DNA from: Candidatus Accumulibacter jenkinsii | GTDB lineage: Bacteria; Pseudomonadota; Gammaproteobacteria; Burkholderiales; Rhodocyclaceae | Length of the DNA: 64,000 bases | Direction: 5' to 3' | Assembly (NCBI GenBank): GCA_036625225.1 | Contig: JAZKUF010000005.1 | Location: 35,553-99,552 of the forward strand | Shown: piece after piece, positions 1 through 62,008 of the stretch | How positions within the stretch are numbered: the stretch's first letter is position 1 | Layout of the letters: every line of letters begins with the position of its first letter | Position numbers and translations under genes: made by a program | The notes under the pieces: generated by a model | The model's database searches: none | Seen by the model: the letters and a program-made list of their open reading frames with translations, nothing else | What the model was told of the DNA's origin: nothing

Positions 1-1117
1 AGGCATGGTGCCGATGAGGATCCTCATCGCCGAACCAGGGACATTGAATCTCGGCGAGTTTTACCAATCGTCCGGAGGCCTCAGGCGCCGGCTCGAGCTG
101 CTCGCCAACACGGCGGACCTGCTCGCGCGCCTTCACGCCGTGCCGCTGGTTTACGCCGACGTCTCGCCGAACAACGTGTTCATCTCGGATACGGCCGAGG
201 CGAGCGAGGTCTGGCTGATCGACCTCGATAATCTCGACTATCTCTCCGTGAACGCGCCCGGGATATTCACGCCTGGCTTCGGTGCGCCAGAGGTCGTGAC
301 GCGCCGCGCAGGGGTCTCGACCCTCTCCGACTCCTACTCCTTCGCCGTCCTCGCGTTCTGGGTCCTCACACAGCAGCACCCGTTTCTTGGCGACTACGTC
401 GAGGAGGGCGGATGGGATGACGACGGCGACCAGGATCGCGAGCAACTCGCGTTTCGCGGCGAGCTACCGTGGATCGAAGACAGCGCGGACGACTCCAACC
501 GCACTAATAAAGGGGTCGCGCGCCACCTCGTGCTCTCGATACCCCTTAAAGAGCTGTTCCAGCGAACCTTTGAAGCTGGTCGAAAAGATCGTCTGGCGCG
601 ACCGAGCATGGCCGAGTGGGCCGAGGCGCTCCGTTGTGCAGCCGATCGCGTCGTCTCTTGCAGGAGCTGCGACTCTTCGTTCGATGTGACCGCTCGCAAG
701 TGTCCGTTTTGCACGGCGAGTCCTAGCCCGTCGTTCATCCACATGCAGGTGAACCGTTGGGACCCCGAGTTCGACGACGCGGCCGGGGCATCTGCGGTCA
801 GCACCCGCGGCGCCGTCTGGCACAAGATGATCGACGTCATGAAGGACAGCGTTGTGCTCCGTCATGTTGTCGAGCCTGTTCTCGCAGACAGAGATGACGC
901 GCCGGTCCTCCGCGTGCGAGTCTTGCGGAGCGGCATCGCCATCGAAGCTCTAGCGAACCAAGAGGTCCACGTGGTCCTTGGAGGCCGCATGCTGCGCATG
1001 GGGGCCGAGATCAAACTGCCACTGCCCAAGGCTGGAAACGAAGCGATTCTTCACTTCGGCCCGCTGGACCGCCCCCACCGCATGGCTGTCCTCCGGCTCT
1101 ATGCGGAGGAAACGTGA
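1..1117 (+). CDS. Hanks-type Ser/Thr protein kinase-like protein, 5'-truncated by the window edge, with a C-terminal zinc ribbon and beta-rich tail
   Basis: ORF 5..1117 starts mid-kinase; no glycine loop or VAIK lysine is in the window. Catalytic-loop-like 'YADVSPNNVF', DFG-equivalent 'LIDLDNL', 'GFGAPE' (APE motif), then 4-Cys ribbon 'CRSCDSS...CPFC'. Stop overlaps the next start (GTGA, 1114-1117). Confidence 0.7.
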   Translation, partial: GMVPMRILIAEPGTLNLGEFYQSSGGLRRRLELLANTADLLARLHAVPLVYADVSPNNVFISDTAEASEVWLIDLDNLDYLSVNAPGIFTPGFGAPEVVTRRAGVSTLSDSYSFAVLAFWVLTQQHPFLGDYVEEGGWDDDGDQDREQLAFRGELPWIEDSADDSNRTNKGVARHLVLSIPLKELFQRTFEAGRKDRLARPSMAEWAEALRCAADRVVSCRSCDSSFDVTARKCPFCTASPSPSFIHMQVNRWDPEFDDAAGASAVSTRGAVWHKMIDVMKDSVVLRHVVEPVLADRDDAPVLRVRVLRSGIAIEALANQEVHVVLGGRMLRMGAEIKLPLPKAGNEAILHFGPLDRPHRMAVLRLYAEET

Positions 1118-4100
1118 AGATCGAACAGGTTCCCTACGGCCAGATTGAGAGCATTCGACTTAGGTGGACGTCGGCGAGTGGGACGCTTCCAAGCTCAGTC
1201 GTGCCTGGTGCCGAGGCGGTGCTTCAGTTCTCTGAGCGCGAGGCGCAGGTGACGCTTCGGATTGGTGGAGATGTCTTGGGCATTCAAGGCGATGGTCGAA
1301 AGCATGAGGTCCTGCTCGCCGACCTATGCACGCGGCACTTGCCTCGTCTGGCTTGGGTCGTCAATGCAGCAGCCCAAGTTATCACGTTGCAGGTCCACAC
1401 GTTCCTGCGAACCCTGACGCTGCCGCCGATTGAACTCGGCGTCGACGAGAAGGTGCTGGACGCGCTGGCGCGGATCGACCGTAGGCTCGCCTCGCCGGAG
1501 CGTGCGCTGCAATGGCTGGAGGAGCAGTTCCTGCTCGACGGAGAGAGCGGCAGGCGAGGGTTTGCGACGGCGGAGTCCAAAACCGGTGTCTTCGCGCTCT
1601 TTGGCCGGACGACGCGGGCGTTCATTCGGGGGGTGAAGCGCTCGGGCTCCACCGAGGGTCTGCTCGTCGATCGCGTCGCTCGCGGGCGCGGTCAGGGCGG
1701 AGAACAGCTCGCTCTGGTGTCGGGGGATGTACGGTTTATCGATGCAACTGTCGCGGGGGAGCTCCGCGCCGATGCAGCAGCTCAGCTTTCGTCTCTGGTC
1801 ACTGCTGGGTCGAGCTTCTTGGACCTGTGGAGCCGCTACGGAGCGATGGAGAACGAAGCGGCGTTGCGCAGGGCGCGGAGGGCTGGTTGGCTCAAGTACG
1901 AACACGTCGAGTCGCTCCCGGACGGACGGTATCGCTTCTCGCTCGCGAACGACTGCACCCTCGAGGATGCGGACCAGTTCAAGCGCACGCTCACCGAGGA
2001 GCAAGGGCTCGGCGTCGAAGCCGTCGGCGAGGTCCCCGAGGTGCTCACGCGCGAGATGTCGTGGGCCGAGTATGACCAGCCTCGCCCGAAGGACGCTCCG
2101 TCGCCTAGGACCTTCGACGGACACGTGGAACTCCACCGGCGAGATCGCACTATTACGCTGGTCCAGCGGCAGAGCGACGAGGGCACTCCGCCGGACACAG
2201 GGGCGCTGGTCGTCTCCCTGCATGGAGACAAAACGCGGCTGAAGCGCCGGTCTGAGGCCGAAAACGCCATCCGTGGAAACACCAACCCGATGCCCCAACT
2301 CCGATATCTGTTGGAAGGGCTGGAGGTTCCGGTCCCTCGCTGTGGCGACATCAAGCCCGTGACGCCCAACGTGAGGCGGAAGGTGTTCGGGACGCGCAGC
2401 CCCACGCCGACGCAGGAGAAGGCGCTTTGGGTTGCACTCAATACGCCGGACATCGCGCTAATCCAAGGCCCGCCGGGCACAGGAAAGACGACAGTCATTG
2501 TCGCCCTCGTTGAGCGGCTTCAAGAGGTCTGGGACACGCAGGACGGCGTCCAGGGCCGTCTACTGCTGAGCGGCTTCCAGCACGACGCTGTCGAGAACGC
2601 GATTCAGCGCATGAACGTGAACGGACTCCCTCCCATCAAGTTCGGCGGTCGAGCGAACAACGCCGAGGATGCGGACAGTGTCGACGTGACGATCGACAGG
2701 TGGTCCGGCGAACGCAGCGCGGAGATTCGCAAGAACCTCCCGCCACAGCCCGCTTCAGTTCTGAAGAAGGAGCTCTCCGAGCTGGTGCAGGGCTATTTTC
2801 TGGCGCCGGGCACGCTCGAACACACGGCGTCCTTGCTTCAAAGTGTCGCGACACGCGTCCATGGCGCGGTGCCCGCAGCGCTCGTCGACCGCATCGTCGC
2901 GCTTGCACGAGAGCTGTTCGAGCGTGCGCGAGCGGCACGCGGTGGAGACCCGGACCACGAGCGCCTCGTCCGCTGCGTGCGCGGTCTGCGCTGCGACGTG
3001 CGTTCCTTCGCCGATGATGGAGCACGAAATGCTGTCCGGCTCGATCGCGAGTTTGCCCGCTCAGGGCGTAGAGGCGAGCAAGCGAAGACGCTGCTCGAGA
3101 CTGCCTCGCGATGGAGCGGGACTGGGATCCCTCCGTTCCTCGACGACCTTCGCGTGCTTCGCCGACGGCTGTTGCTTGATCTACTCCCTCCTGATCGCAC
3201 CGAGGACACCATCCCGCGCGTTCGCACCGATGTCCTCGAGTTGCTGAGCGAGGTGCGTGATCACCTCGAGCAGTGTCAGAACACGACGCGAGACGCGGCA
3301 AACGAGGCGACGTGGAGGTTCCTCTCGGCGCTCGAAGGGGAGCCAGAGGCCGTCAAGTTCGCCGTCATCTCGTACACATCGGTGTTCGCTGCGACCTGCC
3401 AGCAGTCGGCAAGGCAGGAGCTTGCAACGCTCAAGGGCTCCGAGGGCTACGACACCGTCGTCGTGGATGAGGCCGCGCGCGCGATGCCGCTCGACCTTTT
3501 CATCCCAATGGCCCGCGCAAGGCGACGGATCGTGCTCGTAGGCGACCACCGTCAGCTCCCTCACATTCTCGACCAAGAGCTTGAGCGCGAACTCGAGGAG
3601 GCGCTGTCAGATGGCAAAAGCGCGGGAGAACGCACGGGCGAAATGCTGAAAGAGAGCCTCTTCGAGCGACTCTTCAAGGATCTCGGGGATCGAGAGAAGC
3701 GCGACAGAATCCCTCGCGTGGTCACCCTCGACGAGCAGTACCGCATGCACCCGGTGCTGGGGCAGTTCGTCAGCGACCAGTTCTACAAACCGCACGGCGA
3801 GGCCTTCAGGTCGCCCCTTCCTGCTTCGAACTTCGTTCACTCGCTGCCCGGCCATGGCGGACCGGCATCGTGGCTCAATGTGCCGCACAAACTTGGCCCT
3901 GAGCGTAATGGACAAAGCAAGTCGCGTCCTGTCGAGGCGCAGGCTATCGTTGCAGAGTTGAAGCGGCTCATGGATTCGACGGAGGGCCGCGAACTTACCT
4001 TCGGCGTGATCTCCTTCTACAAGCAGCAGGTCAAGGTGATCGAGGATGCGCTCGTGGAAGCCGGGATCGTCGCTCGAACGGACGAGACGACGGAGATCGT

Positions 4101-4410
4101 TGTCCCCTACCGGGAGTTGCCGTTCCCCAATGGTCGCGTCGCGGAGCGCCTCCGGTTCGGCACCGTCGACGCTTTCCAGGGCATGGAGTTCGATGTCGTG
4201 TTCCTCTCGATGGTCCGCAGCAATCCCCGCAGGGTCTTCGGGCACGTCACCTCTCCGAACCGTCTCTGCGTGGCGATGAGCCGTCAGAAGCGGCTCCTGA
4301 TCGTTGCAGGCGACGACGGCATGCTCCGCGCGGACAATGCGCCGAAGGCGATCAGCCCCCTGGTCGAGTTCTACAAGTTGAGCGAGGTGCGCGATGCCGC
4401 CCGTGTTTGA
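1114..4410 (+). CDS. Superfamily-1 helicase, Upf1/Dna2-like (AAA_11/AAA_12 layout), with an unassigned ~450-aa N-terminal region
   Basis: Walker A 'GPPGTGKT', Walker B 'VVVDEAARA', 'GDHRQLPH', 'LDEQYRMH', 'GTVDAFQGMEFDVVFLS', 'VAMSRQKRLLIV'. GTG start overlaps the kinase stop. The 3' end overlaps the next gene by 17 nt. Confidence 0.85.
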   Translation: MKIEQVPYGQIESIRLRWTSASGTLPSSVVPGAEAVLQFSEREAQVTLRIGGDVLGIQGDGRKHEVLLADLCTRHLPRLAWVVNAAAQVITLQVHTFLRTLTLPPIELGVDEKVLDALARIDRRLASPERALQWLEEQFLLDGESGRRGFATAESKTGVFALFGRTTRAFIRGVKRSGSTEGLLVDRVARGRGQGGEQLALVSGDVRFIDATVAGELRADAAAQLSSLVTAGSSFLDLWSRYGAMENEAALRRARRAGWLKYEHVESLPDGRYRFSLANDCTLEDADQFKRTLTEEQGLGVEAVGEVPEVLTREMSWAEYDQPRPKDAPSPRTFDGHVELHRRDRTITLVQRQSDEGTPPDTGALVVSLHGDKTRLKRRSEAENAIRGNTNPMPQLRYLLEGLEVPVPRCGDIKPVTPNVRRKVFGTRSPTPTQEKALWVALNTPDIALIQGPPGTGKTTVIVALVERLQEVWDTQDGVQGRLLLSGFQHDAVENAIQRMNVNGLPPIKFGGRANNAEDADSVDVTIDRWSGERSAEIRKNLPPQPASVLKKELSELVQGYFLAPGTLEHTASLLQSVATRVHGAVPAALVDRIVALARELFERARAARGGDPDHERLVRCVRGLRCDVRSFADDGARNAVRLDREFARSGRRGEQAKTLLETASRWSGTGIPPFLDDLRVLRRRLLLDLLPPDRTEDTIPRVRTDVLELLSEVRDHLEQCQNTTRDAANEATWRFLSALEGEPEAVKFAVISYTSVFAATCQQSARQELATLKGSEGYDTVVVDEAARAMPLDLFIPMARARRRIVLVGDHRQLPHILDQELERELEEALSDGKSAGERTGEMLKESLFERLFKDLGDREKRDRIPRVVTLDEQYRMHPVLGQFVSDQFYKPHGEAFRSPLPASNFVHSLPGHGGPASWLNVPHKLGPERNGQSKSRPVEAQAIVAELKRLMDSTEGRELTFGVISFYKQQVKVIEDALVEAGIVARTDETTEIVVPYRELPFPNGRVAERLRFGTVDAFQGMEFDVVFLSMVRSNPRRVFGHVTSPNRLCVAMSRQKRLLIVAGDDGMLRADNAPKAISPLVEFYKLSEVRDAARV

Positions 4411-6619
4411 TCGCACGACGCCGGTCGTGGATTTCGGCGCCACGTCGTTGCCGTTCAAGCGCGGGGCTCGTCGATGGCTGGTGTGGCCCGCGCTCGCGTA
4501 CAAGGTCCTTCTTCCGTCTCGGGGCAACCCGCCGTTCAACGTACTTCAGCGCGCCGCGCTCGACATGTGTCGAGCGGGGGTCCGGGACGCCGAGGAGATC
4601 TCGCGCCGCCTCTCGCTCCATTTGGACTTGGTCGCTTTCGTGATCGAGCAACTCGTCACCATCGGCATGCTCGATGAGGCGCGCGTACCGACGCACCGGG
4701 CGCTGCGCCTGATGAACGAGGAGGACGAACCCAGTGAGTTGGAGGACGCCGGCTACGTCTTCGTCGATGTGGTTGATGGGAGACGCGTCTGGCCGCGCGT
4801 CCACCGAGGAGGCCTACCAATCGTCGAGGCTGAGTTCGAGCAGTCCAAGGCCAAGTTCCAGCGGGGCACCCTGGGCCACCCGGAGGATGTCTTCGCCAAC
4901 GTAGTGTGGCCAGAAACCGGGGCACGGTCTATCGCGCCGAGCGCGTACGAGGCGCAGAAGTCTGCCCGACATCACGCTCGCCGATTGCGCGCCTTCCGAC
5001 GTGAGGTCTCTCCCGGCGGAGGCTCCGGGGGAGCCCTAGATACTCTCAAGGCTGGAGGGCTACGTGTCGTCGATGTGGAGCCGGAGCCCATTTTCGTGGC
5101 GGCCTGTGTGTTTCTGCCGAAGGATGTGCGGCAGCGCTCCTGGTTGATCACGGATCCCTTGGGGCTCGGTGTCAGCGACGTGCTTCGGGCCGGGGTGACC
5201 AAGCTCGCCAAGGAAGGGAAGTACGGCCTCGCGGAGTTGCTGAAAAAGGTCGCAGGCGACGCTTGGCACGTCGATGAGGGAGATCTCGCACTGTACTTGG
5301 CTGAGGCTAAGCAAGCCGCTACCGAGCGCGTCGCCCGTCGCCTCGGCGAGGCCGCGAGGCTGCTCCCCCCCGATGCACTGGCACGTCTCGCCGATGCCGA
5401 CGTGCGCCTCGAAGGAGTGCAGACGGCCAAGCCAATCGAAGACTTCCTCGGCAATGCGTACGCGGCCCTTGAGAGCGTATTTGGCTGGCTGGTGTCGCTC
5501 TTCCCGGACCCGAGCCTCTTCTCAGTGCTAGGTAACAACGCGCCCGAGAACGCGACGCTACTCCGACGAATCGCTGATCAGGTCGGCTTCGCTGCCTCAC
5601 AGCGCATACTGCCTCTCCTGAGCGTCACCCGTGGCATCGTGAAGGGGGCGATCTGTTTCGGCAACAAGACCTTCCCGGGCCGACTGGCTGCGACGCTGCT
5701 GGCGGCGCAGCGCAACGGAGACCACCCGCTCGCCACTTTGGCCGCGCGCGAGCCCGACGCGCTGGAGTTCTTCGCTGAGATGGGAAAGCGCAGAATCGAC
5801 GCCTCGCACGACACCTCGGCGGTCCCGAGCGTCGAGATCGCGGTCGAGATGAAGGACCGCTTGTTCGCGGTCCTACGGGCGCTGGTTGGTGCTGGTCCAG
5901 TGGACGTGGAGACCGACGCACAGGCGCCATCATGGGGGGGCGACCTGCTTCTGCGCGTCCGAGCGCGGGCTGAACAGGCCTCCGAGGGGTATCCAGGGCT
6001 CGTTGAACGTCCCGATCTGCGTGCGCGCGTGATCGAAATGCACCACGCAGCGCTGCTCGTGAAGTTGCTCGCAGGGTCCGCAGCCACGTCCTCGGAAAAG
6101 TTGCTCGCAGGGTCCGCAGCCACGTCCTCGGAAACCTTGAGTACGCGGGCTCGCGACGCTGTTGTGGCTCTCACCATCGCGATGGAGGCGACCTTCGCAG
6201 CGATCGAAGCAGAGGCTTCGACGCCATCCGAGGTCGCGCAGACGATCTCGGATGACCGGGAGCGAAACGCGACGCTCCTAGCGTCTGCGGCCGTCGCGGT
6301 CGGCTTCGAGGTCGAAACGTCGGGGCAACTCCCCAAGGCTCTTACCCACGCAAAAGCTAACCGTATGCGGCGGGCTGCGCAGGGTCAGAGGGAGACGTTG
6401 TCGGCGCGCGTTGCTGTCCAGTTGTTTGCAGCGCACATGAAGGCAGACCATCCGCTCCGCGAGGTCGCGAAGCGGCTTCCCTCCTTGCTTCGGGACGTGG
6501 GTCGCATCGTCGATGCCCGCGGGCATGGAGATGATGTCGTCGTCACGGCATCCGAAGTCGCCGAGATCGAGACGATGGTTGCAAACGACATTCGGACGAT
6601 GCTCGAAGCGATTGATTAA
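4394..6619 (+). CDS. Hypothetical protein with N-terminal wHTH-like segment and two HEPN-like R-x4-6-H helices (candidate RNase)
   Basis: 'EMGKRRIDASHDTSAVPSVEIAVEMKDRLFAVLRAL' (codons at 5789-5809) and C-terminal 'DVGRIVDARGHGDDVVVTASEVAEIETMVANDIRTMLEAI' (6503-6526) look like two copies of one helix-motif-helix unit. N-terminal 'NVLQRAALDMCRAGVRDAEEISRRLSLHLDLVAFVIEQL' looks wHTH-like. Translationally coupled on both sides. Confidence 0.55.
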   Translation: MPPVFDRTTPVVDFGATSLPFKRGARRWLVWPALAYKVLLPSRGNPPFNVLQRAALDMCRAGVRDAEEISRRLSLHLDLVAFVIEQLVTIGMLDEARVPTHRALRLMNEEDEPSELEDAGYVFVDVVDGRRVWPRVHRGGLPIVEAEFEQSKAKFQRGTLGHPEDVFANVVWPETGARSIAPSAYEAQKSARHHARRLRAFRREVSPGGGSGGALDTLKAGGLRVVDVEPEPIFVAACVFLPKDVRQRSWLITDPLGLGVSDVLRAGVTKLAKEGKYGLAELLKKVAGDAWHVDEGDLALYLAEAKQAATERVARRLGEAARLLPPDALARLADADVRLEGVQTAKPIEDFLGNAYAALESVFGWLVSLFPDPSLFSVLGNNAPENATLLRRIADQVGFAASQRILPLLSVTRGIVKGAICFGNKTFPGRLAATLLAAQRNGDHPLATLAAREPDALEFFAEMGKRRIDASHDTSAVPSVEIAVEMKDRLFAVLRALVGAGPVDVETDAQAPSWGGDLLLRVRARAEQASEGYPGLVERPDLRARVIEMHHAALLVKLLAGSAATSSEKLLAGSAATSSETLSTRARDAVVALTIAMEATFAAIEAEASTPSEVAQTISDDRERNATLLASAAVAVGFEVETSGQLPKALTHAKANRMRRAAQGQRETLSARVAVQLFAAHMKADHPLREVAKRLPSLLRDVGRIVDARGHGDDVVVTASEVAEIETMVANDIRTMLEAID
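6062..6133 (+). repeat. Perfect 36-bp tandem duplication (2 copies) inside the CDS
   Basis: 'aagttgctcgcagggtccgcagccacgtcctcggaa' occurs at 6062-6097 and again at 6098-6133, encoding KLLAGSAATSSE twice, in frame. Confidence 0.95.
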
Positions 6620-6635
6620 GGAGAAATCGAAGACC

Positions 6636-9071
6636 ATGAGCGGCCTATACGAAGGAACCACCACTGCCGGAGCCAATACAAAGGGCGCTAATACTGCGCT
6701 CGACGTCAACGCGGCGGTTCGCGTCAAGCAACTCGACGCGCGTGAGCAGTCCTTGACTGCAAGGGAGCACACGCTAAAGGAGCTCGAGCGACAGATCAAG
6801 GACCAGGCTACCTCACTTAAGGAACGTGAGGCGGAGGTCGAGGCTGCGGAGTCGAAGACCCAGCGCGACCTCGCCGATCTCGCGAAACGCCAGAAGCAGG
6901 TGGCAGAGACCGAGAGCTCCATTGAGGCGCGCGCTCGTGACTTGGCTCAGCGTGAGATCGAGGCGAGCGAAGGATTCGCCTCCAAGAACCGTGAAGCGCT
7001 CACCGCGCTCACGAAGACTCACGCGTCATTGCGCGCCCAGTCGGAGCGTCTGCAGTCCGAGTTGGATGCCGCCCGGATAAAGGGCATCGAAGACCTCGAG
7101 AAGCGGCTCGCCGATGAGCGACGAACCCGCACCGAGGCTCTCGACGCTGATATTCAAGCGGATCGCAAGCGTCACATCGCAAAGCTCGCTGCCGAGGGCG
7201 CAACGCAGGATGTGGCGCTTGCTGAACAGAGGGCGCGCTTCGCCAAGGAGCAGCAGACCGCGCTTGAGGAGATCGAGCGAGAGCGCGTTCGTCTTGCTGA
7301 CCTGGAGGCCGAGCTTCGCCACAGGCTCGGCGACCTGCGCTGGAAGGAGGAGGACCTCGCGGGGTACCGCTCTGGCATCGACCGGTCCATTGAGGAGCGG
7401 TCTCGCGACCAAGTGGCGTCGTTGGAGCGCCAGTTGGACGCGCTGCGCGAGGACCACAGACGGGACCGTGACCTGGTCATCTCGCTCGAGTCTCAGTTGG
7501 CAGCGTCGCGCGACCTCCTGACCCGATTCGGAGACGACCCCGCCGAGATCGAGAAGCGCATCGCGCAGCAGGCGAAGAAGATCAGCGACCTTGAAAAGGA
7601 GCTGCTCCGTCGTCCAAGCGCAACCGACAAGGAACTCTTGGTCACCCTGCAAGAGCAGGAGCGTGTCTGGGCGGCTGAACGAGACCGGTTGGTTCGTGAG
7701 ATCACACAGCTCAAGGCTGAGCAGAGCCGCTGGCTGACCGGTGTCGCCGACCTCGAGCAGCAACGGGAACGACGCGAGGTGGCAGAGCGTCGGATCGAGG
7801 TGCTTGCTGGAGAGATGGAAAAGTACAGGGCGGACGTCGACCGGATGCGTGCGCTATATCAGAGCCCCGCAGAGCGGGCGGCACTGGTCGGGCGCATCGA
7901 GGATCCGTGGCGTACTGATTTCAAACGAGCCAAGGGCAGCACGCCGAGGGAACTCGACTGGCTCAACGATATCGTGGCCAAGTGCGAATACAGCGGCATG
8001 CGTTTCCCGAAGCGCCTGGTTCACGCTTTCCATACGTCGCTGAAGGCCGCAGAGCTATCACCACTGACACCACTGACGGTGCTCGCCGGCGTGAGCGGCA
8101 CCGGAAAGTCGGAACTTCCTCGCCTTTACTCGCGTTTCGGTGGGCTTGGGTTCCTCTCACTCGCCGTCCAACCAAACTGGGACGGCCCGCAGTCGCTGTT
8201 CGGTTTCTTCAACTCGATCGACAACCAATTCAACGCAACAACGGTCCTGCGCGCGATGGTGCAGGCGCAGCATGACCCTGACCACGAGACCTACAAACAC
8301 GGGCTCTCGGACCGCCTCCTGTTGGTTTTGCTCGACGAGATGAATCTCGCTCACGTTGAGCAGTACTTCAGTGACCTCCTTAGCCGCCTCGAGCAGCGTC
8401 GTGGGGAGAGCCGAGACGTCACGCTCGATATCGACCTCGGTTCCAGAGAGCCGCCGTACCAGTTGCGCCTTGGTCGGAATGTGCTCTGGGTGGGCACGAT
8501 GAACGAGGACGAGACGACGAAGGCTCTCTCCGACAAGGTCATCGATCGCTCGAACCTGTTGTACTTTCCGCGTCCGCGCGAGCTTCACAGTCGTACGGAG
8601 GTTACCCTCGGTGCGGAGTCGCCGTTGCTGGCGGAGAGTGCGTGGCGCGAGTGGCTGCAGCTTCGGTCGCCGTTCACCTCGGACGAGCTCAAGCCCTTCA
8701 AGGATGGGCTTCAGGAGATCAACTCGCGGCTGGAATACGTCGGCCGCGCCCTCGGACACCGCGTCTGGCAGTCGGTTGAGTTCTACATAGCCAACCACCC
8801 CGAAGTGATCGACGCACGCGCGCGGAAGGACGAGGACGCGCTCCAGCGCGAGATGCGACGTGCCTACGAGGATCAGCTCGTCCTCAAGGTGATGCCGAAG
8901 CTTCGTGGCATCGAAACCTCCGGCAAGTCGAGAAACGAGACCCTCGATCCGATCAAGAAGCAGCTCGCCGAGTTTGGCACAGGCTTGTCCAAGGACTTCG
9001 ACATCGCGTGCCGCGTTGGACATGGTGCGTTCCTCTGGAACAGCGCGACGTACCTGGAGAACGCTGAATGA
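6636..9071 (+). CDS. Coiled-coil / McrB-family AAA+ GTPase fusion
   Basis: ATG at 6636 follows 'aaggag'. About 430 aa are E/R/L/A/Q-rich coiled coil ('LKELERQIKDQATSLKEREAEVEAAESK...'). Then McrB-type core: 'LAGVSGTGKSELPRLY', 'LLVLLDEMNLAHVEQYFSDLLS', 'VGTMNEDETTKALSDKVIDRSNLLYF'. Stop overlaps the next start (ATGA, 9068-9071). Confidence 0.8.
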   Translation: MSGLYEGTTTAGANTKGANTALDVNAAVRVKQLDAREQSLTAREHTLKELERQIKDQATSLKEREAEVEAAESKTQRDLADLAKRQKQVAETESSIEARARDLAQREIEASEGFASKNREALTALTKTHASLRAQSERLQSELDAARIKGIEDLEKRLADERRTRTEALDADIQADRKRHIAKLAAEGATQDVALAEQRARFAKEQQTALEEIERERVRLADLEAELRHRLGDLRWKEEDLAGYRSGIDRSIEERSRDQVASLERQLDALREDHRRDRDLVISLESQLAASRDLLTRFGDDPAEIEKRIAQQAKKISDLEKELLRRPSATDKELLVTLQEQERVWAAERDRLVREITQLKAEQSRWLTGVADLEQQRERREVAERRIEVLAGEMEKYRADVDRMRALYQSPAERAALVGRIEDPWRTDFKRAKGSTPRELDWLNDIVAKCEYSGMRFPKRLVHAFHTSLKAAELSPLTPLTVLAGVSGTGKSELPRLYSRFGGLGFLSLAVQPNWDGPQSLFGFFNSIDNQFNATTVLRAMVQAQHDPDHETYKHGLSDRLLLVLLDEMNLAHVEQYFSDLLSRLEQRRGESRDVTLDIDLGSREPPYQLRLGRNVLWVGTMNEDETTKALSDKVIDRSNLLYFPRPRELHSRTEVTLGAESPLLAESAWREWLQLRSPFTSDELKPFKDGLQEINSRLEYVGRALGHRVWQSVEFYIANHPEVIDARARKDEDALQREMRRAYEDQLVLKVMPKLRGIETSGKSRNETLDPIKKQLAEFGTGLSKDFDIACRVGHGAFLWNSATYLENAE

Positions 9072-12000
9072 AGAAGGTTCGCGCAGCCCGCGACCGCGCT
9101 GCTCCCAAGACGGCGGGGCCGCCGCCGCTCCCGGAGCTCGACGGATTGGACGCCCTTGCGGCGTCCGACGCGCCGACCGTGACGGCGGCTTGGTGGATAT
9201 CCCTTCAGGTTTCGGAGCACGTCTTCTCAATGATCGCGCACGGCGATCCGCGCACTGGCGAACCCCTTTCGAGACCTCTAACGGAGATCCTTCGCGACGT
9301 TCGCCACGCGACCGCGACCGGAAGTCGACCGTTTCCCAGCGATCGCCTCCTCGGCGCCGCCGAGTTCGCCATCGACTCCCTGGAATACCTGCTCGACCGG
9401 CATCGACATCGAATCGTCAGGGTCCACCAGCAACTCCCGTTCCATCAGCTTCGCGAGGTCGACACGCGATCGATGGCGTGGCTCGCACGACAGCCCGGAA
9501 GGAACATCCGCGAGAAGCTCTCGGGCCGCACCCATGCGTTGGGCGCAAAGCGCGACGTGTCCGTCGACACGACCGAAAACCGGCTCCTCCGGTCGTTCGC
9601 CAAGCTCCTCGTTCAGCGCGCCAGCAATCGCCTGGAGAACAGGGACGCCTACGACGGCACGACCGAGGATGAAGAGCGCATACGTCGGCTGGAGGAGTGC
9701 GTTCGCCTCTGCGATGAGCGGATGAGACGGTCCGAGCTCGCCGATGTTCCGACGCTGACCCGACTGCAGCCGAACAATGTTCTATTGAATGACCCGCACT
9801 ACTCGCGGGTGTTTCGCGCATGGAAGTGGCTGCGCGATGGTGAGGAAGCCTTGCGTGGCTCTTGGAAGGATGTCCTCCAGCGTACCCGCGTCCTTCTTTA
9901 TTGGATGACGGCGGCACAACTTGTGACACGTGAGCGAGTGGTGGTCGCGGAGACGTTCGGGCGCGTCCTCACGGGGCGGGGCGATGAGCGACACATCGGC
10001 ATCGAGGTGCTTGGTGCCGAGGCGGTTGGTGCGAACTGGTTCTTGAACCCACCGCTTCACTTCTTGGTGCTGCCCACCGGGGGCAACAATGCGGTGTTCC
10101 GTATCCGCGTCGCGCTCGAGGGCGAGTACATCCTCGTACACGTCGCTTCGCTGGGCGGGAGAGGGCTCCTTGTTGATGAGTCGGTCGCTACGCTTGCCTT
10201 TGAGGTGCGGCCCACTTCGGAGCGTCTCCTGCCTCAGCGCGGGATTGGGATCGCCGTGGATGGCCTCGAGGTCTCAGTTCGAGGGACGGACCGCGGCTAC
10301 GCCGACCTCGCGGGGCTGACGCCCCTCGCAACGCAGGTGGCTCTGCAGATCCTCGAGCGTTGCGGCGGGAACCCCAATAACGAGCGCCAGGAGCACACCT
10401 CTGCTGAAGTGGGAGACGGCGCGCGCATCGGCATCGAGATTGGCACCGCGTCGCTGCATGTCGGCGCGCAACATAAACTGCCGCTGGTGTCGGCACCGTG
10501 GGCATTGGCTCTCGACCTGCCGGGGGACACGGGCGGCATCGAGTGGCTTGAAGGCCGTTCAGAACGAGAGATGGTCCTTGGTGCTGCCGGTCGGTCGCTG
10601 TGGAGCACCGGCGACATCTTGGATACGGACGGGAAGGCCGACGCAGGGATGGTTGCCTTGGCAGCGGACCGCCTGCTGGGTAGCCTTGCGTCTGAGCTAC
10701 AGATACCGACCGACGCACGGGTCGCCTATGCCGTCCCCGATGCAGTCGATGAATTCTCGCAGCGCAGCCTGCGGAGCGCGTTCGGGGGGGCGTTCCATCG
10801 GCCGGTTCCGGTGTGGAGAAGCGTTGCGGCCGCGATGTCCTGGGCGTCGGAGGCGGGGAAGCGCGGCCCGCGCTCAGGAGAGTCGGTGGTCGTCGTCGAC
10901 ACGGAGTTTAGTGGCGTCTCGCTGACAGTGCTCACCGCCTGCCACGACAAGAAGCTCGAGCAGGCACATCCGTCGTCACGCGGAATCTACTGGGAACGCA
11001 AGCCGCCACTTCCGCCCGACGAGCAGTTGGAGACGCTCGGTTGGCCGCGTGTACTTGGCTCCTACGCGCGGATGTTGGTGGAGCGTGAGCTGAGTTCGCA
11101 GGCTCCCGAGGTCCAAGAGCGCGTTGTCGAGGATCTCCTTCGCAGTGGCAAGATCGGTGCTCTCGTAGCGCGCGGCGGGTCGATCTTCGTGCAGGTGCCG
11201 TCGAGCCAGAGAACGATGCCCGACGTCGTGGAATTCTTTGAAGACCCCGCGTGGTTCGACGACGAGGTGGCGGGCTGGGGCCAACGACTGGATCAGAGCC
11301 TGCAGAACACGCTTGCACAACTCGACGGCCATCGGGTGCTGCTCATCGGTGGCCCCTGCTCCTACAGCCGGTTTCACCGCGGAACGCACTCCGGACAAAT
11401 CAAGACGTTCGATGTGGCCAAGGGGTTCGGCTTACTCACACTAGATGCGATCGGCGTAGACGTCTTCTTTCACATCAATACGACTCGTGTTCCTCGTAAT
11501 GTCACCCTAGTCCCCAGGCTTGCAGTTGAGTGCGACTTTGCAAGGGGGAAGAAGGGGCTGGAAGCTCGACAAGTCGCTCCTGTGCAGCAAGGCAAGTCGC
11601 GGCCGCACGTTCCATCGCTCGCGATATGGTTGCTACGGCGCACCTTCGTCATGCCTCAGGACTTGGCGCGTGGAGCCCATGAGTGCTTGCTCCGAATGGA
11701 CACCGGCTCGCCGACTTGGCGTGAGTGGCTGCCCGAGCTGTCGCTGGAGGTCGTACGCGACGGGCACTTCGGCGAACTCCCCCTACTCGAGCGAGGCACG
11801 TTCGTCGACCCATTCCTCGGCGACGCCGTGCAATTCACAGTGCCGGAACACCTCACGCTGGGACGCGGACATCGTTGGTTCTCTTTCCCGTTGCTCGTTG
11901 GTCGCCAGGGACGCCGCCCTGTCGCGTGGGAGGCGCGGTTGGACTCGCCCGCGTTCCCCCTCGACCACGACGTCCGGGCGCGGCTGCGGCTGTCATACCG

Positions 12001-13111
12001 GTACGGACTCGACAATAGCTATGAGCTCACCGTGGAGCCTGCGTTGCCGCATGATGCTCCATTCGCCAGAGTGGAAGCCAAGTGGATCAAGGGCGGCGAG
12101 ATCGCCACCGCGTTGGTGGCGCGGGAGCCGTTGCCGCTCGAACGTAGGCCGTGGGATCGCGTGGGCACGGAGTCCTTCCTTAATGCCGCACGCTCCCTTC
12201 ACCTGCATGATGAACGCAATGCGAAGCGCCTCTTCGCGCTGACGCGCGCATGCTGGTCGGAGGGGCGAAGCCTCGCAACAGCGCCAGCGGACGTGCACCG
12301 AATGTTCGACGGCTTCCGCGACCAATTGCTGAATGCGCTTCCGCCGAAGCTGAGCGTTCATGACATGCCACGTGCGCTCGAAATCCTCTCGTTGCTTCAC
12401 GAGGACGCTCCGACTGAAGTCATCGGCTGGCTGCTCGAACTCGATGCGCCGGCTGGTGATGGGCGGATACCGGTGCCCCTTTATCGGAAGACGGCAGGCA
12501 TGCTCGCCATGGTTGTCGGAGATGGTCAGGGTGAGCGTGTGGCTGTGCTTAACCGATTGCTCGATCATCTCCAGCGGCACGGCCACAGCAACACTTTCGA
12601 CCCGCAGTTGACTGGTATCACCATGAGGGCGCTGGGCAACGCAGCGTGGAGACATCCAGGCTTCATCGGCTCACTGGCCTCCACACAGGACGGCGCCGCG
12701 CTCGTCATCGCTTCGTGTCGACGCTCGCTGAATGGTCTTCTTGCACGCATTCCAGTTAAGGTTTCGTCCGATGAGGAGCGCCAGAAGATCTCGCGGCTTT
12801 ACGGCACGCAGTTCCGGGATGCCTGTGAGTTGCTGCTGGTGCTGATGGCCGTCGCCCCATCGGCCCCAGTGGTTGCGCCGCTACGCGCCGGCTCTCCATC
12901 AGCCGACGGTTTCGCGAAAGTTGTTCGGCAGATAGACGCTCGGCTTTCCGCCCTTGAGGCCTTGCCCTCCTGGCGAGTACGCCTCGATGTGAATGTGCCA
13001 CCAGCGCTTCATCGGATGTCGGCAGTAACATTCGCTCTGAATACGTACCTTGTCGAGGGCTCGGGTGCGAATTTGGTACAGGTTGCTGGTGCTGAATTCG
13101 ACGTCAGTTGA
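9068..13111 (+). CDS. 1347-aa fusion: McrC-N/DUF2357-like region, degenerate Hsp70/actin-like ATPase fold, cold-shock domain, ~550-aa helical C-terminal region; no PD-(D/E)xK motif seen
   Basis: 'DVSVDTTENRLLRSFAKLLV' (McrC/DUF2357-type DTxENR motif). Hsp70-like 'RIGIEIGTASLHVG', 'AYAVPDAVDEFSQRSL...VWRSVAAAMSW', 'VVVVDTEFSGVSLTVL', 'VLLIGGPCSY'. CSD 'GQIKTFDVAKGFGLLTLDAIGVDVFFHINT' (RNP1/RNP2-like). Confidence 0.7.
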   Translation: MKKVRAARDRAAPKTAGPPPLPELDGLDALAASDAPTVTAAWWISLQVSEHVFSMIAHGDPRTGEPLSRPLTEILRDVRHATATGSRPFPSDRLLGAAEFAIDSLEYLLDRHRHRIVRVHQQLPFHQLREVDTRSMAWLARQPGRNIREKLSGRTHALGAKRDVSVDTTENRLLRSFAKLLVQRASNRLENRDAYDGTTEDEERIRRLEECVRLCDERMRRSELADVPTLTRLQPNNVLLNDPHYSRVFRAWKWLRDGEEALRGSWKDVLQRTRVLLYWMTAAQLVTRERVVVAETFGRVLTGRGDERHIGIEVLGAEAVGANWFLNPPLHFLVLPTGGNNAVFRIRVALEGEYILVHVASLGGRGLLVDESVATLAFEVRPTSERLLPQRGIGIAVDGLEVSVRGTDRGYADLAGLTPLATQVALQILERCGGNPNNERQEHTSAEVGDGARIGIEIGTASLHVGAQHKLPLVSAPWALALDLPGDTGGIEWLEGRSEREMVLGAAGRSLWSTGDILDTDGKADAGMVALAADRLLGSLASELQIPTDARVAYAVPDAVDEFSQRSLRSAFGGAFHRPVPVWRSVAAAMSWASEAGKRGPRSGESVVVVDTEFSGVSLTVLTACHDKKLEQAHPSSRGIYWERKPPLPPDEQLETLGWPRVLGSYARMLVERELSSQAPEVQERVVEDLLRSGKIGALVARGGSIFVQVPSSQRTMPDVVEFFEDPAWFDDEVAGWGQRLDQSLQNTLAQLDGHRVLLIGGPCSYSRFHRGTHSGQIKTFDVAKGFGLLTLDAIGVDVFFHINTTRVPRNVTLVPRLAVECDFARGKKGLEARQVAPVQQGKSRPHVPSLAIWLLRRTFVMPQDLARGAHECLLRMDTGSPTWREWLPELSLEVVRDGHFGELPLLERGTFVDPFLGDAVQFTVPEHLTLGRGHRWFSFPLLVGRQGRRPVAWEARLDSPAFPLDHDVRARLRLSYRYGLDNSYELTVEPALPHDAPFARVEAKWIKGGEIATALVAREPLPLERRPWDRVGTESFLNAARSLHLHDERNAKRLFALTRACWSEGRSLATAPADVHRMFDGFRDQLLNALPPKLSVHDMPRALEILSLLHEDAPTEVIGWLLELDAPAGDGRIPVPLYRKTAGMLAMVVGDGQGERVAVLNRLLDHLQRHGHSNTFDPQLTGITMRALGNAAWRHPGFIGSLASTQDGAALVIASCRRSLNGLLARIPVKVSSDEERQKISRLYGTQFRDACELLLVLMAVAPSAPVVAPLRAGSPSADGFAKVVRQIDARLSALEALPSWRVRLDVNVPPALHRMSAVTFALNTYLVEGSGANLVQVAGAEFDVS

Positions 13112-13583
13112 TTGCCAAATATCTGCCGTTCAGTTGGCATTTGCCTTGTGACTGCAAAGGCCGAACAGCGACGCCGTCGTCCGAGCCTCGTGGTCGGCAG
13201 GTATGTTATCAGAAAGCGGCCCTTGCTCATCAAAACATCATCAGGCCGTTTTGGTCGTTAGCAGAATTTCAAGGTGCCCGGTAGCCGCCGGCGACGTGAA
13301 TGTTTCGGTGATCCACCAGGCCTATGGAAGTTCGGTAGCGTTATGCGGGCCAGCCGCGCGCGAGTGGCTCCGAGCGGGGGGCACCAGGCGCACCTGGGGT
13401 TCCGGCCTGACGGAACCTGTCTCGACGTCAAACAGATCAGCCCGTGAAACAAGCGCAGGGCTTTTGCCATCAGCGTAACAAACTGTTTTATTGAGTCTTT
13501 TAGCTATTTTAAAAAATTGTTTCACGGCCCAGCGGCGTTCCAGAGGGCGAGAGCAGAAAATTCCCCTCCTCTGCCGCTTCACA

Positions 13584-25997: not shown

Positions 25998-28100
25998 CTC
26001 AACCCCTCTTTAACATCTTCCTGGCATATTCCGGTCTTTTCCCGGGCAGCGCGCGCCTAGGCGGTTGATTTTATTGTTGGTAGATTTTCCAAAACGTTTT
26101 GTGGTGCCATAATAGTTTGGCTGAGGCGGCCAAACCCCTTGTTTTTGTTGTACGCTCGTGTGGATGTTTATACGCCAAACGAGAACGAACAACAAAGCCA
26201 CGGGTGAGGGCTACTTCACCTATCGACTGGTGCGCACGCAGCGTATCGGGGGCAAGGTCCGTCAGATCACGGTACTGAACCTGGGGCGGCACTTCCCGAT
26301 CAAGCAGGAAGACTGGCCGCTGTTGAGTAGCCGCATCGAGCAGTTGCTCAATCCTCAGGGGCTGCTCCTGCCCTTGCCCTGCCCGGAGGCCATCGAGCGG
26401 GCGGCGCAGCGCTACTTTGCGCAACTGGTGGCGCAGGCGCCAACCCTGGCGTCTGCGGCGGGGCAGCCCAGTGAGGGGGACGCCGGGCCAGCCAGCAAAC
26501 CGTGCCCGCCGCTAGACTTCCAGGAAGTCGATGTGGACTCGCTGCGGATGACCCAGCCCCGCTCGGTGGGGGTGGAGCAGGTCGGCCTGCATGCGCTGAG
26601 CGAACTGGGGCTCCTTGAAACGCTGAAGGATCTGGGCGTCAATGGCATCGTGCAAGCCTCGATCATCGGTAGCCTGATCGGCAGAATGGGCCAGCCGGGG
26701 TCGGAACGGGCAACCTGGAACTGGCTGCAACACCATAGCGCCTTGGGCGAATTGCTCGACTTCGACTTCCTGTCGATCTCTCACATGGGTTTGTACCGTG
26801 CCTCGGATGTTCTGATGAAGCATCGTGAAGCGATCGAAGCGCGGCTCTTTGGCTCTGTCCAGACGCTCTTTGATCTGCCAGAGACGGTCACGCTGTACGA
26901 CCTGAGCAACACCTATTTCGAAGGCGAAGCCAGCGGCAATGCCAAGGCCCGGCGGGGGCGTTCGAAGGAGAGACGCAGTGACTGCCCGCTGGTGACGCTT
27001 GGTCTGGTGCTCGACGGCAGTGGCTTCGTCAGGCGCTCACAGACCTTTGCCGGCAACGTCTCGGAACCCGGCACGCTCTCTGCCATGCTGGCCGGGCTCG
27101 GCACTCCGGCGGGCGCGCTGGTGGTGATGGACGCCGGTATTGCCACCGAGGCCAATGTGAGCTGGCTGGCCGAACACGGCTATCGCTATCTGGTGGTTCG
27201 CCGCGGCGGCAAGCGCCAGTTCGACCAGAGCCGCGCGGTGACCATTGAGACTGCCAGCGAGGAGCCGCTCCATCTGCAGAAGGAACCCAGCCCGGACGGC
27301 AAGGAAATCTGCCTGTATTGCCACTCACCGAGTCGGCAACTCAAGGAAGAAGCGATGCTCGCGCAGGCCTGCCAGCGGTTTGAAGCGGGATTGCAGGAGC
27401 TGAGCGAGGGTCTGCAAAAGCCGCAGAGCGAGAAACGCCACGACAAACTGCTCGAACGTCTGGGCCGACTCAAACAGAAGAGCCGCGGCGCCAGCCAACA
27501 CTATCAAGTCCAGTTCATCAGCGACGAGGGCAAGAAGGTGAGCGCGATCACCTGGCAGAAGGAGCTGGTCGCCGGCACGATGGCCACCCATCCCGGCGTC
27601 TATTGCCTGCGCACCAACGAACTGACCTGGGATGAAGAACGCCTCTGGCGCACCTATACGATGCTCACCGACCTGGAGAGCGTTTTTCGCAGCCTGAAGA
27701 GCGAGCTTGGCCTGCGGCCCGTCTATCACACCAACGAAGTGCGCGCCGACGGGCATCTCTTCATTACCGTGCTCGCCTATCAGTGCGTCCAGTTCCTGCG
27801 GGTCAAGCTCAAGGCGGCGGGAATAACCGACAGTTGGGCCACCCTGCGCGACATCCTCTCGGTACAGCGCCGGGTCACGGCGACCTTTACCCAGCGTGAC
27901 GGGCGCTCCTTGCATGTGCGCAAAGCGACCGTCGCCGAGCCCGAGCTGATGGCGATCTACCAGGCGCTGGGGCTCAACTGCGCACCAGGAGGAACCAGAA
28001 AACTGATCATCTGAATCCAAATCACCGGCGTGTAGTGCCACTCGAGCTTTTTTTAGACCGCAAGCGGTTGATTAAGGAAGATGCTTTTTCAGGCTTGTTA
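25998..28100 (+). mobile_element. IS1634-family (IS4 superfamily) insertion sequence; boundaries approximate
   Basis: Single transposase ORF. Imperfect terminal inverted repeats both contain CATCTTCC (near 26016 and, reverse-complemented, near 28075). The edges were inferred from where gpD homology stops and resumes. No clear target-site duplication was found. Confidence 0.6.
26164..28014 (+). CDS. IS1634-family transposase
   Basis: N-terminus 'MFIRQTRTNNKATGEGYFTYRLVRTQRIGGKVRQITVLNLG' is typical of IS1634-group transposases. Full-length ~616 aa with no frameshifts. Confidence 0.8.
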   Translation: MFIRQTRTNNKATGEGYFTYRLVRTQRIGGKVRQITVLNLGRHFPIKQEDWPLLSSRIEQLLNPQGLLLPLPCPEAIERAAQRYFAQLVAQAPTLASAAGQPSEGDAGPASKPCPPLDFQEVDVDSLRMTQPRSVGVEQVGLHALSELGLLETLKDLGVNGIVQASIIGSLIGRMGQPGSERATWNWLQHHSALGELLDFDFLSISHMGLYRASDVLMKHREAIEARLFGSVQTLFDLPETVTLYDLSNTYFEGEASGNAKARRGRSKERRSDCPLVTLGLVLDGSGFVRRSQTFAGNVSEPGTLSAMLAGLGTPAGALVVMDAGIATEANVSWLAEHGYRYLVVRRGGKRQFDQSRAVTIETASEEPLHLQKEPSPDGKEICLYCHSPSRQLKEEAMLAQACQRFEAGLQELSEGLQKPQSEKRHDKLLERLGRLKQKSRGASQHYQVQFISDEGKKVSAITWQKELVAGTMATHPGVYCLRTNELTWDEERLWRTYTMLTDLESVFRSLKSELGLRPVYHTNEVRADGHLFITVLAYQCVQFLRVKLKAAGITDSWATLRDILSVQRRVTATFTQRDGRSLHVRKATVAEPELMAIYQALGLNCAPGGTRKLII

Positions 28101-49561: not shown

Positions 49562-49776
49562 GCGAGCGCTGATCGCCGCGGGCGACAGTCCTTGACCCAC
49601 GGATAGCCCAGGTTCCACCCTTCACACCCCGGCTTCGACCCGGTCTTGCGACTCGACGCCGGATGATCGGCGATCGACGGGCGGATGAAGACGAGATCGT
49701 CTTCGGAAATCTGCCGGTGTCGGTCCCTCGGGGGCGTGTGCATGTGCCGCACCATACCCGATTTGAGCGTGGAACG

Positions 49777-57030: not shown

Positions 57031-57164
57031 CCTCATCACCTCCATGTGCTCACGCCGGCCTGCGGCGCGATGCACCATGCCTTTGTTCCTGTTTGCAGCA
57101 ATAGTCGTGCCGGGCGGCCTTGCCTACCCCACTTCAATGACCGAGAGAGGGATCGAGCGCGCCT

Positions 57165-61722: not shown

Positions 61723-62008
61723 GGGGCCCTCGCTTTGCTGTTGGAAAGCAGAAAACTGGTCCAGTCGAGAAGACATCGTCCATTGAAAAGCAAGCGACAT
61801 GCCACGCCTTCGATCGCTTGCGGGAAGCGTCGCAGCGCTTCCTGAGCGGCAAAAAGGGGCAGCCCGAGAGTAAAAATTTCCGCTTCTCGGCGCTTTGCCG
61901 GCGCCTTCCCTGAGCGGCCACACCGGGGCTTCGGCCTGCCGATCGCGCGCAGCGAGGGCGTACAGCGGGGGCGTAGCCAGATCGCCTCGTGCGCGTCTGC
62001 GTCTCCGC

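Follow-up and report, generated by a model that had tools for sequence, protein, structure and literature searches.

A Type III-A CoCoNuT operon of Candidatus Accumulibacter jenkinsii encodes an McrC-derived protein fused to Hsp70-like and cold-shock modules

Introduction

What can an McrC-like protein do when it carries no recognisable nuclease? The question is raised by an open reading frame (ORF) at 9068-13111 in a 64,000-nt stretch of the Candidatus Accumulibacter jenkinsii genome (GenBank assembly GCA_036625225.1, contig JAZKUF010000005.1, positions 35,553 to 99,552 of the forward strand). This stretch is referred to throughout as the window, and all nucleotide coordinates are window positions. 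An initial annotation had described the ORF product as an McrC-like partner of a McrB-like protein, with no visible nuclease and fused to a degenerate Hsp70-like ATPase and a cold-shock domain (CSD). We identify the ORF product as CnuCD, which is the McrC-derived subunit of a defence operon of the Type III-A CoCoNuT (coiled-coil nuclease tandem) kind; of this operon the window holds the STK-ZnR, CnuH, CnuE, CnuB and CnuCD genes. We consider it quite likely that this identity holds together with a mechanism in which CnuCD would serve as a nuclease-less, target-sensing adaptor.

CoCoNuT systems are defined by a McrB GTPase of the NxD type joined to a long coiled-coil (CnuB), often by a McrC that has lost its nuclease or retains it in inactivated form, and by linked HEPN or other nucleases (Bell, Sahakyan, Makarova, Wolf and Koonin, eLife 2024, PMC11090510). 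Comparative genomics led the same authors to predict that these systems target RNA. The NxD motif, usually followed by E or D, marks the CoCoNuT branch of the McrB GTPases (PMC11090510). Type III-A systems consist of CnuH, CnuE, CnuB and CnuCD, accompanied frequently, although not as core components, by a TerY-P module of VWA, PP2C and STK-ZnR (PMC11090510). CnuH of this type begins with an SmpB-like oligonucleotide/oligosaccharide-binding (OB) fold and a RelE/colicin-D-like RTL domain, and CnuE combines a winged helix-turn-helix (wHTH) with two HEPN domains, one with an RxxxxH motif and one with a shortened RxH (PMC11090510). CnuCD itself is described as DUF2357 plus Hsp70-like nucleotide-binding and substrate-binding domains (NBD and SBD), HEAT-like repeats and either a single CSD or two of them outside DUF2357; its Walker A-like motifs are degenerate, its Walker B-like motifs are mostly conserved, and the immunoglobulin-like (IG) domain, the nuclease of the PD-(D/E)xK type and the zinc ribbon have been lost altogether (PMC11090510).

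The McrC-like N-terminus and the missing nuclease

The CnuCD gene and its domains are listed here with the evidence for each (aa, amino acid positions; AF2, AlphaFold2; pLDDT, predicted local distance difference test).

9068-13111, + strand: CnuCD gene, 1347 aa (Pfam, AF2, Foldseek)
9146-9922, + strand: McrC N-terminal (DUF2357) domain, aa ~27-285, helical bundle plus beta-hairpin (Pfam, AF2, Foldseek)
9938-10357, + strand: all-beta domain aa 291-411 plus helix aa 414-430 (AF2)
10424-11362, + strand: Hsp70-like NBD, aa ~453-765, with degenerate phosphate loops (AF2, Foldseek, motif conservation)
11387-11581, + strand: CSD, aa 774-838, at the NBD-SBD junction (Pfam, PDB cold-shock matches, AF2)
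11717-12094, + strand: SBD-beta-like beta-sandwich, aa ~884-1009 (Foldseek, conservation)
12158-13057, + strand: C-terminal all-helical repeat region, aa ~1031-1330 (AF2: 13 helices, pLDDT ~90)

CnuCD starts at an ATG that shares the sequence ATGA with the stop codon of the McrB-like gene before it; the initial annotation had placed this 1347-aa ORF correctly, directly downstream of that gene and overlapping it. The identical protein at NCBI is MEF8701259.1, a 'DUF2357 domain-containing protein' from a metagenome-assembled genome of Candidatus Accumulibacter sp. UW20. Pfam recognised two domains, DUF2357 at aa 107-252 (E 4e-12; score 46 bits, cut-off 23) and CSD at aa 775-837 (E 2.4e-7; score 31 bits, gathering cut-off 27). 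Beyond these two, sequence searches of NCBIfam, PADLOC, PHROGs and PDB returned cold-shock matches only. Conservation was assessed in a family alignment with 51 homologs (78-23% identity), and the counts below are given per 52 sequences. The string 'DVSVDTTENRLLRSFAKLL' (aa 163-181), which had been taken for the DTxENR-type motif of McrC/DUF2357 proteins, does lie within the Pfam DUF2357 match; its N171 is invariant and D167, T168, E170 and R172 are nearly so.

The protein was modelled by AF2 as two overlapping pieces, aa 1-480 and aa 440-1347, and the models were compared with the PDB by Foldseek. The N-terminal model reached a pLDDT of 83.3, with values of ~90 across the DUF2357 domain. Its top three Foldseek matches were all McrC chains of McrBC complexes (6hz4_M, 6ut5_G and 6ut6_G), at probabilities of 0.99, 1.00 and 0.92; their E-values, 9e-3 to 9e-2, were weak. 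Two long strands (aa 115-165) enclose a hairpin loop at aa 125-155 that carries the invariant residues R129, D132, W138, L139, G144, R145 and K150. Because these residues cluster where the finger of a McrBC-type complex would be, we assign the loop, by analogy, as the predicted finger entering the CnuB ring.

The remaining parts of a McrC were sought in the same models and alignment. The N-terminus enters helices directly in the AF2 model, and the IG beta-sandwich is absent there; CxxC pairs indicative of a zinc ribbon do not occur anywhere in the CnuCD sequence. No PD-(D/E)xK nuclease was matched in CnuCD by Pfam, NCBIfam or PADLOC, a restriction-endonuclease-like core is absent from both AF2 models with no nuclease among their PDB matches, and the family alignment contains no conserved D...(D/E)xK block. 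DUF2357 is followed, and not preceded, by an all-beta domain (aa 291-411) that the initial annotation had overlooked; AF2 built it from 10 strands with pLDDT mostly 80-95, in the space before the Hsp70-like NBD, and Foldseek found no convincing PDB fold match for it. A cryptic nuclease in this domain or at the C-terminus was considered and rejected: the two regions are all-beta and all-alpha, respectively, and neither has a conserved acidic/lysine triad.

These data bear on the possibility that the protein is a conventional McrC whose PD-(D/E)xK nuclease has merely diverged, serving a DNA-cutting Type IV restriction system. An N-terminal DUF2357 domain and an adjoining, translationally coupled McrB-like GTPase are what such a system would have. 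Against this, the AF2 models (pLDDT 83 and 89) span the whole protein and their folded segments are either other folds or the all-beta domain, no D...(D/E)xK is conserved among the 52 sequences, neither Pfam nor PADLOC reports a nuclease, and CnuB has NxD rather than NxxD. With fold, alignment and hidden Markov model (HMM) searches all negative for a nuclease, the conventional reading is effectively refuted, and we give it almost no credence. The earlier statement that no PD-(D/E)xK-like block could be seen accordingly holds by HMM search, fold and conservation alike, the C-terminal region included.

The Hsp70-like module, the cold-shock domain and the C-terminal helices

The model of aa 440-1347 had a pLDDT of 89.4 and a predicted template modelling score (pTM) of 0.86. 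Its best Foldseek matches were full-length DnaK, BiP, Hsc70 and Hsp110 (E 1e-11 to 1e-8, probability 1.0, 600-800 aligned columns), while structures of the NBD only and MreB ranked lower (E ~1e-6). The SBD-containing targets outscored the NBD-only ones, and therefore CnuCD has both an Hsp70-like NBD and an SBD-beta-like sandwich. Sequence-level searches did not detect this relationship. There was no Pfam HSP70 match, and a family profile HMM searched against PDB sequences retrieved cold-shock proteins only. An hhalign comparison of the CnuCD family with E. coli DnaK, whose sequence as used may be approximate, gave a probability of 2%; it nonetheless paired VLLIGGPCSY of CnuCD with VILVGGQTRMP of DnaK. 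Because the sequence-level searches failed, the Hsp70 assignment rests on predicted structure.

Several NBD residues are kept across the family: D558 in 52/52 sequences, G455 in 51/52, D611 in 49/52, G761 in 48/52, E/D457 in 45/52 and G762 in 42/52. A PVWRSxAAA block is conserved as well. The phosphate-1 and phosphate-2 loops of true Hsp70s read DxGTTxS and DxGGGTxD. These Gly/Thr-rich loops have been lost from CnuCD, and the family reads GIE(I/L)G(T/N)A and D(T)EF(S/G)G at the two positions. The NBD would probably bind ATP but hydrolyse little of it.

The CSD occupies the position of the Hsp70 NBD-SBD linker and was modelled as a barrel of 5 strands. PDB cold-shock proteins matched it at E 1e-4, or at E 2e-6 when the family profile was used. 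The window protein has KGFGLL and VFFHI at the RNA-binding motifs, and in the family RNP1 reads KGFG(L/F)(L/I) and RNP2 (V/L)FFH, both conserved (consensus KGFGFI and FFH). The SBD-beta-like sandwich that follows is the most conserved segment of the family, with P889, L891, P964 and L965 invariant, and distant homologs score best at aa ~860-1030 (positions 420-590 of the aa 440-1347 query). In the last region, aa ~1031-1330, the stacked helices have no Pfam match and Foldseek matches are dominated by Hsp70; the label 'HEAT-like' is taken from PMC11090510.

The strings that the initial annotation had quoted as actin/Hsp70 landmarks are all present and conserved, and AF2 with Foldseek gives them an Hsp70 fold. 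The structure prediction it had proposed was carried out, and both an actin-like (Hsp70) and an OB fold (the CSD) were predicted by AF2. The domain it had called a clear CSD is likewise above the Pfam cut-off, matches cold-shock proteins in the PDB and has conserved RNP1 and RNP2. Its description of the last ~550 aa as probably helical was right for ~300 aa of helical repeats and for linker helices, and wrong for aa ~884-1009, which form the SBD-beta-like beta-sandwich.

The upstream genes of the operon

Four genes precede CnuCD on the same strand, and their junctions overlap or abut. These genes, their diagnostic motifs and the candidate end of the operon are as follows.

2-1117, + strand: STK-ZnR, Ser/Thr kinase with C-terminal zinc ribbon, 5' end cut by the window start (Pkinase, CxxC pairs)
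1114-4410, + strand: CnuH, UPF1/IGHMBP2-like superfamily 1 (SF1) helicase with a ~420-aa N-terminal extension (Pfam, TIGR00376, PADLOC)
4394-6619, + strand: CnuE, predicted effector with wHTH and two HEPN domains, 741 aa (motifs; weak wHTH match)
5792-5809, + strand: putative CnuE HEPN motif 1, RIDASH (Rx4H), aa 467-472 (kept in 43/43 homologs)
6518-6526, + strand: putative CnuE HEPN motif 2, C-terminal shortened RGH (RxH), aa 709-711 (kept in 41/43 homologs)
6636-9071, + strand: CnuB, N-terminal coiled-coil and McrB-like GTPase (PADLOC, coiled-coil model matches, motifs)
8502-8513, + strand: CnuB NxD-E GTPase signature, N-E-D-E in 'GTMNEDETT', replacing McrB NxxD (GTMN[EQ]DE in 75/75 aligned homologs)
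13124-13139, + strand: weak terminator-like hairpin just past the CnuCD stop codon (consensus scan)

The part of STK-ZnR in the window is the C-terminal 370 aa, and its frame is open back to base 2. It matches Pkinase at E 3.9e-8 over the C-lobe of the profile only (positions 105-209) and carries a CxxC...CxxC pair, 'CRSC...CPFC'. A homolog of this protein is 490 aa long, and a PP2C gene precedes it in four other loci (L001-L003 and L083). CnuH was matched by AAA_11 (E 1.2e-30), AAA_12 (E 2.5e-36), the IGHMBP2 family TIGR00376 (E 2.8e-43) and PADLOC MkoA (E 1.3e-89). For CnuE the wHTH-PRTase_assc match was weak (aa 56-109, E 0.0068).

The longest ORF for CnuB begins at 6513, which would give 852 aa and a 107-nt overlap with CnuE. 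A GGAG at 6620, directly past the CnuE stop codon, is followed by the ATG at 6636, and CnuB homologs are 774-831 aa long. Because this GGAG and ATG fit the homolog lengths better, CnuB probably starts at 6636, and the 852-aa reading would then be 41 aa too long. CnuB was matched by PADLOC PDC-M26A (E 5e-29), and its Walker A (GVSGTGKS) and Walker B (LLDEMN) motifs are intact and conserved. Its coiled-coil of ~450 aa was called from SMC/Rad50 model matches over aa 73-450 (numbered from 6513) and from the character of the sequence, which is highly charged and heptad-like, and not with a dedicated coiled-coil predictor. At the other end of the operon, the terminator consensus scan returned 3 sites against 1.1 expected, which gives weak support for an operon end at 13124-13139.

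The McrB-like partner gene noticed earlier is thus CnuB, whereas the view of the locus as a two-gene McrBC pair had missed CnuE and CnuH, which are encoded further upstream in this operon. These two proteins, the two-HEPN CnuE and the UPF1-like CnuH, are the most likely source of the nuclease activity.

Comparison with Type III-A CoCoNuT and other known systems

Each Type III-A feature that can be assessed in the window is present, namely the NxD motif, the coiled-coil, DUF2357, the loss of the nuclease, the Hsp70-like fusion, the CSD, CnuH and the CnuE motifs. The architecture of CnuCD and the order of its partners are the same as in Type III-A CoCoNuT, and no defining feature differs. The locus is a further member of a described and widespread system type; it establishes no new category, as both architecture and hypothesis were published in 2024 (PMC11090510). 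Three details go beyond the main text of that paper: the position of the CSD exactly at the NBD-SBD junction, the beta domain at aa 291-411, and relatives that bear S1 domains. The hinge position of the CSD, the beta domain and the S1 variants appear to be modest additions to the published Type III-A description. The window locus is an intact Type III-A example with well-modelled domains, though the window start cuts the kinase gene.

With McrC of E. coli and T. gammatolerans (6hz4, 6ut5 and 6ut6) CnuCD shares a homologous DUF2357 domain and a gene that lies downstream of, and is translationally coupled to, a McrB-family GTPase gene. Unlike McrC it has no PD-(D/E)xK domain and has instead ~900 aa of Hsp70-like, CSD and helical modules. 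CnuB differs from McrB in having NxD in place of NxxD, and a ~450-aa coiled-coil where McrB has its DNA-binding domain. The predicted NBD and SBD-beta folds are common to CnuCD and Hsp70/DnaK, and the residual motifs that the two share include VPxxxxxxQR, the connect helix and the adenosine-motif GG. In contrast to Hsp70/DnaK, CnuCD has a CSD in place of the interdomain linker, a helical region described as HEAT-like in place of the SBD-alpha lid, a fusion to the McrC N-domain, and degenerate phosphate loops.

An Hsp70-like NBD/SBD associated with an NxD McrB GTPase, as found here, also occurs in Type III-B and III-C systems as CnuD and in early NxD-clade Hsp70-McrB fusions (PMC11090510). The Hsp70-like unit is a separate gene (CnuD) in III-B and III-C or is fused to McrB, whereas in the window it is joined to the N-domain of McrC. 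Mokosh MkoA and PADLOC PDC-M26 share the helicase (CnuH) and GTPase (CnuB) modules with the window operon. Assignment to the Mokosh or PDC-M26 class was rejected: only modules are shared, the phospholipase D (PLD) nuclease partner of Mokosh is absent, and CnuCD matches no PDC-M26 model.

Distribution and variation of CnuCD

An exhaustive HMMER search with CnuCD aa 440-1347 returned 611 clusters (50% identity) at E<=1e-3, 362 at E<=1e-10 and 110 at E<=1e-30, and most cluster members are 1200-1450 aa long. Scanning one genome per species gave 78 loci, and gene order was counted in 65 with >=9 kb upstream of the CnuCD homolog. CnuB was found upstream in all 65, and CnuH and STK in 60 each; CnuE, which evolves fast, was detectable by BLAST in 40. 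The loci span Pseudomonadota, Myxococcota, Latescibacterota, Planctomycetota, Actinomycetota and Bacillota, with named hosts that include Azospirillum, Rhodopila, Thiocapsa, Myxococcus, Corallococcus, Pseudomonas, Neisseria, Achromobacter, Aeromonas and a Halalkalibacter. The fusion of the three modules had been called unusual; it had in fact already been described (PMC11090510) and is widespread, with 362 clusters at E<=1e-10 and related loci in many phyla.

In the metagenomic loci L001-L003 the PP2C gene is immediately upstream of the kinase. The Klebsiella pneumoniae plasmid pKP57-mcr10, an mcr-10 IncF plasmid, carries an extended Type III-A array (L083, NZ_CP088129.1 93309-114610) in the order VWA, hypothetical, AAA ATPase, CARF, hypothetical, PP2C, kinase, CnuH, CnuE, CnuB and CnuCD. 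There were 20 matching plasmid records in PLSDB, and the match of the pKP57-mcr10 type (27% coverage, 32.1% identity) repeats in at least 8 more plasmids of Klebsiella, Enterobacter and Raoultella. RefSeq labels the CnuB of pKP57-mcr10 'chromosome partitioning protein ParA'.

This distribution bears on whether the operon could be a housekeeping machine for RNA quality control or stress, in which the CSD and Hsp70-like parts would have a role in cold or heat stress. CSD and Hsp70 folds are classically stress-related, and a UPF1-like helicase recalls RNA surveillance. The occurrence is nevertheless scattered over phyla and extends to plasmids (the 20 PLSDB records); copies adjoin insertion sequence (IS) elements, genes for CARF nucleases and a gene of the HNH type; and the window operon lies in an island with a contractile injection cluster and transposases (described below). 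Moreover, PADLOC defence models match three of the operon genes, and a Type II relative of the system protected against phages. A housekeeping role is highly improbable on this evidence, and we retain a defence operon as the identity of the locus.

The OB-fold modules of CnuCD vary between relatives. The number of CSDs is 0, 1 or 2, with two in several relatives. In three relatives (P0057, P0059 and L027) an extra CSD is inserted into the beta domain after DUF2357. Two distant relatives, P0062 (L003 10001-15722) and P0063, have two tandem S1 domains inside NBD lobe II and no CSD, and in the P0062 locus a CARF-nuclease (Card1_endonuc) gene lies directly downstream. Another, P0055, is without any OB-fold module yet keeps the Hsp70-like module. 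OB-fold modules, both CSD and S1, are shuffled over one CnuCD scaffold.

The same variation has a bearing on what the module would sense. As the main alternative, one could suppose that the SBD-beta clamp senses an exposed peptide and not RNA, for instance in a protein of the phage or in a nascent chain stalled on the ribosome, and thereby triggers CnuB and the HEPN effector, with the CSD only tethering the protein to RNA or ribosomes. The SBD-beta of bona fide Hsp70s binds peptides. The corresponding domain at aa ~884-1009 is the most conserved in the CnuCD family, the retention of E/D457, D558, D611 and the GG at 761-762 makes nucleotide-dependent clamping conceivable, and P0055 has kept its Hsp70-like module without a CSD. 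The degenerate phosphate loops, however, count against a chaperone cycle of the normal, ATP-driven kind, OB folds that bind RNA (CSD and S1) were gained repeatedly on the CnuCD scaffold, and the effector and helicase of the operon are of RNA-directed types. A protein sensor is accordingly an unlikely explanation, and recognition of nucleic acid is the one that we carry forward.

Proposed mechanism

CnuCD is most likely a nuclease-less, target-sensing adaptor that would plug into the CnuB GTPase ring. By analogy with McrBC structures, the finger loop of its DUF2357 domain would insert in the ring and control GTP hydrolysis, the part that McrC plays in McrBC. The ancestral PD-(D/E)xK nuclease would have been replaced by a sensor composed of an Hsp70-like NBD/SBD clamp, a CSD at the hinge and a platform of helical repeats. 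The CSD could bind RNA or ssDNA (single-stranded DNA), and the sensor as a whole would recognise a target, most likely RNA that is viral or aberrant, perhaps on ribosomes. Cleavage would be delegated to the two-HEPN RNase CnuE together with the UPF1-like helicase CnuH, probably tethered via coiled-coils, and the kinase/phosphatase module may regulate the system. We infer all of these biochemical steps; what was observed comprises the domain identities, the absence of the nuclease and the conservation of motifs and operon. The initial annotation had likewise proposed an RNA- or ssDNA-sensing adaptor coupled to a McrB-like motor, which agrees with the published hypothesis (PMC11090510). The experimental data that were found all concern a related Type II CoCoNuT, which gave P. 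aeruginosa protection from ssRNA phages and from one DNA phage (bioRxiv 10.64898/2026.04.06.716636).

A more specific switch can be formulated from the position of the CSD. The interdomain linker of Hsp70 transmits allostery between NBD and SBD. If the CSD took over this function, binding of ssRNA at the hinge might gate the docking of the clamp and thereby switch the CnuB ring on through the McrC finger, and interchangeable OB-fold 'antennae' might tune the choice of target. We regard this combined proposal as speculative and rather improbable.

Several observations weigh against the adaptor mechanism or leave the Type III-A assignment incomplete. The window holds one member of the TerY-P triad, an STK-ZnR cut by the window start, and the VWA and PP2C genes would lie outside it. 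Sequence searches of Pfam, PADLOC and NCBIfam gave no match to CnuH aa 1-420, where the published type would have its SmpB-like and RNase-toxin-like folds. The two HEPN domains of CnuE are putative and were recognised by their motifs. The all-beta domain at aa 291-411 has no place in the published Type III-A description. In the literature searched, there is no experimental test of any Type III-A system. Finally, binding of RNA by the Hsp70-like module is conjecture, and the most conserved part of that module, SBD-beta, is one that binds peptides in true Hsp70s.

The locus adds to the phage-defence inventory of Candidatus Accumulibacter, which is used in enhanced biological phosphorus removal in wastewater plants. 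It could also be a template for experiments on the way in which a McrC derivative without a nuclease links an Hsp70-like/CSD sensor with a GTPase ring and a HEPN RNase.

Genomic surroundings

A complete-looking cluster resembling the extracellular contractile injection systems (eCIS) and Photorhabdus virulence cassettes (PVC) lies at 15417-42346 on the + strand, with ~2 kb between it and the CoCoNuT operon upstream. It encodes a protein with a winged-helix domain (WHD) and AAA ATPase, Pvc16_N, tail sheath, a gp19-like tube protein, a Phage_base_V spike, two Baseplate_J proteins, an NHL/beta-propeller protein and eCIS_core. One ORF of this cluster, 21758-25018 (1086 aa), has no Pfam match. A DDE_Tnp_1 transposase ORF (26158-28014, + strand) stands between the sheath/tube and the spike/baseplate genes, and it may be an IS insertion splitting the cluster.

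Further along, an IS66-family transposase gene (47927-49618, - strand) adjoins an ORF for the DUF4158 N-terminal part of a Tn3-type transposase (49777-51768, - strand). These IS66 and Tn3-type ORFs, together with dips in GC content to 0.55-0.56, suggest a mobile-element-rich island. Two unusual fusion ORFs occur at 57165-62073 on the - strand, one (745 aa) that combines a glycosyl hydrolase family 1 domain with an RmlD-like reductase, and another (900 aa) that combines a glycosyltransferase with a UDP-galactopyranose mutase; both adjoin rpoN (55603-57078).

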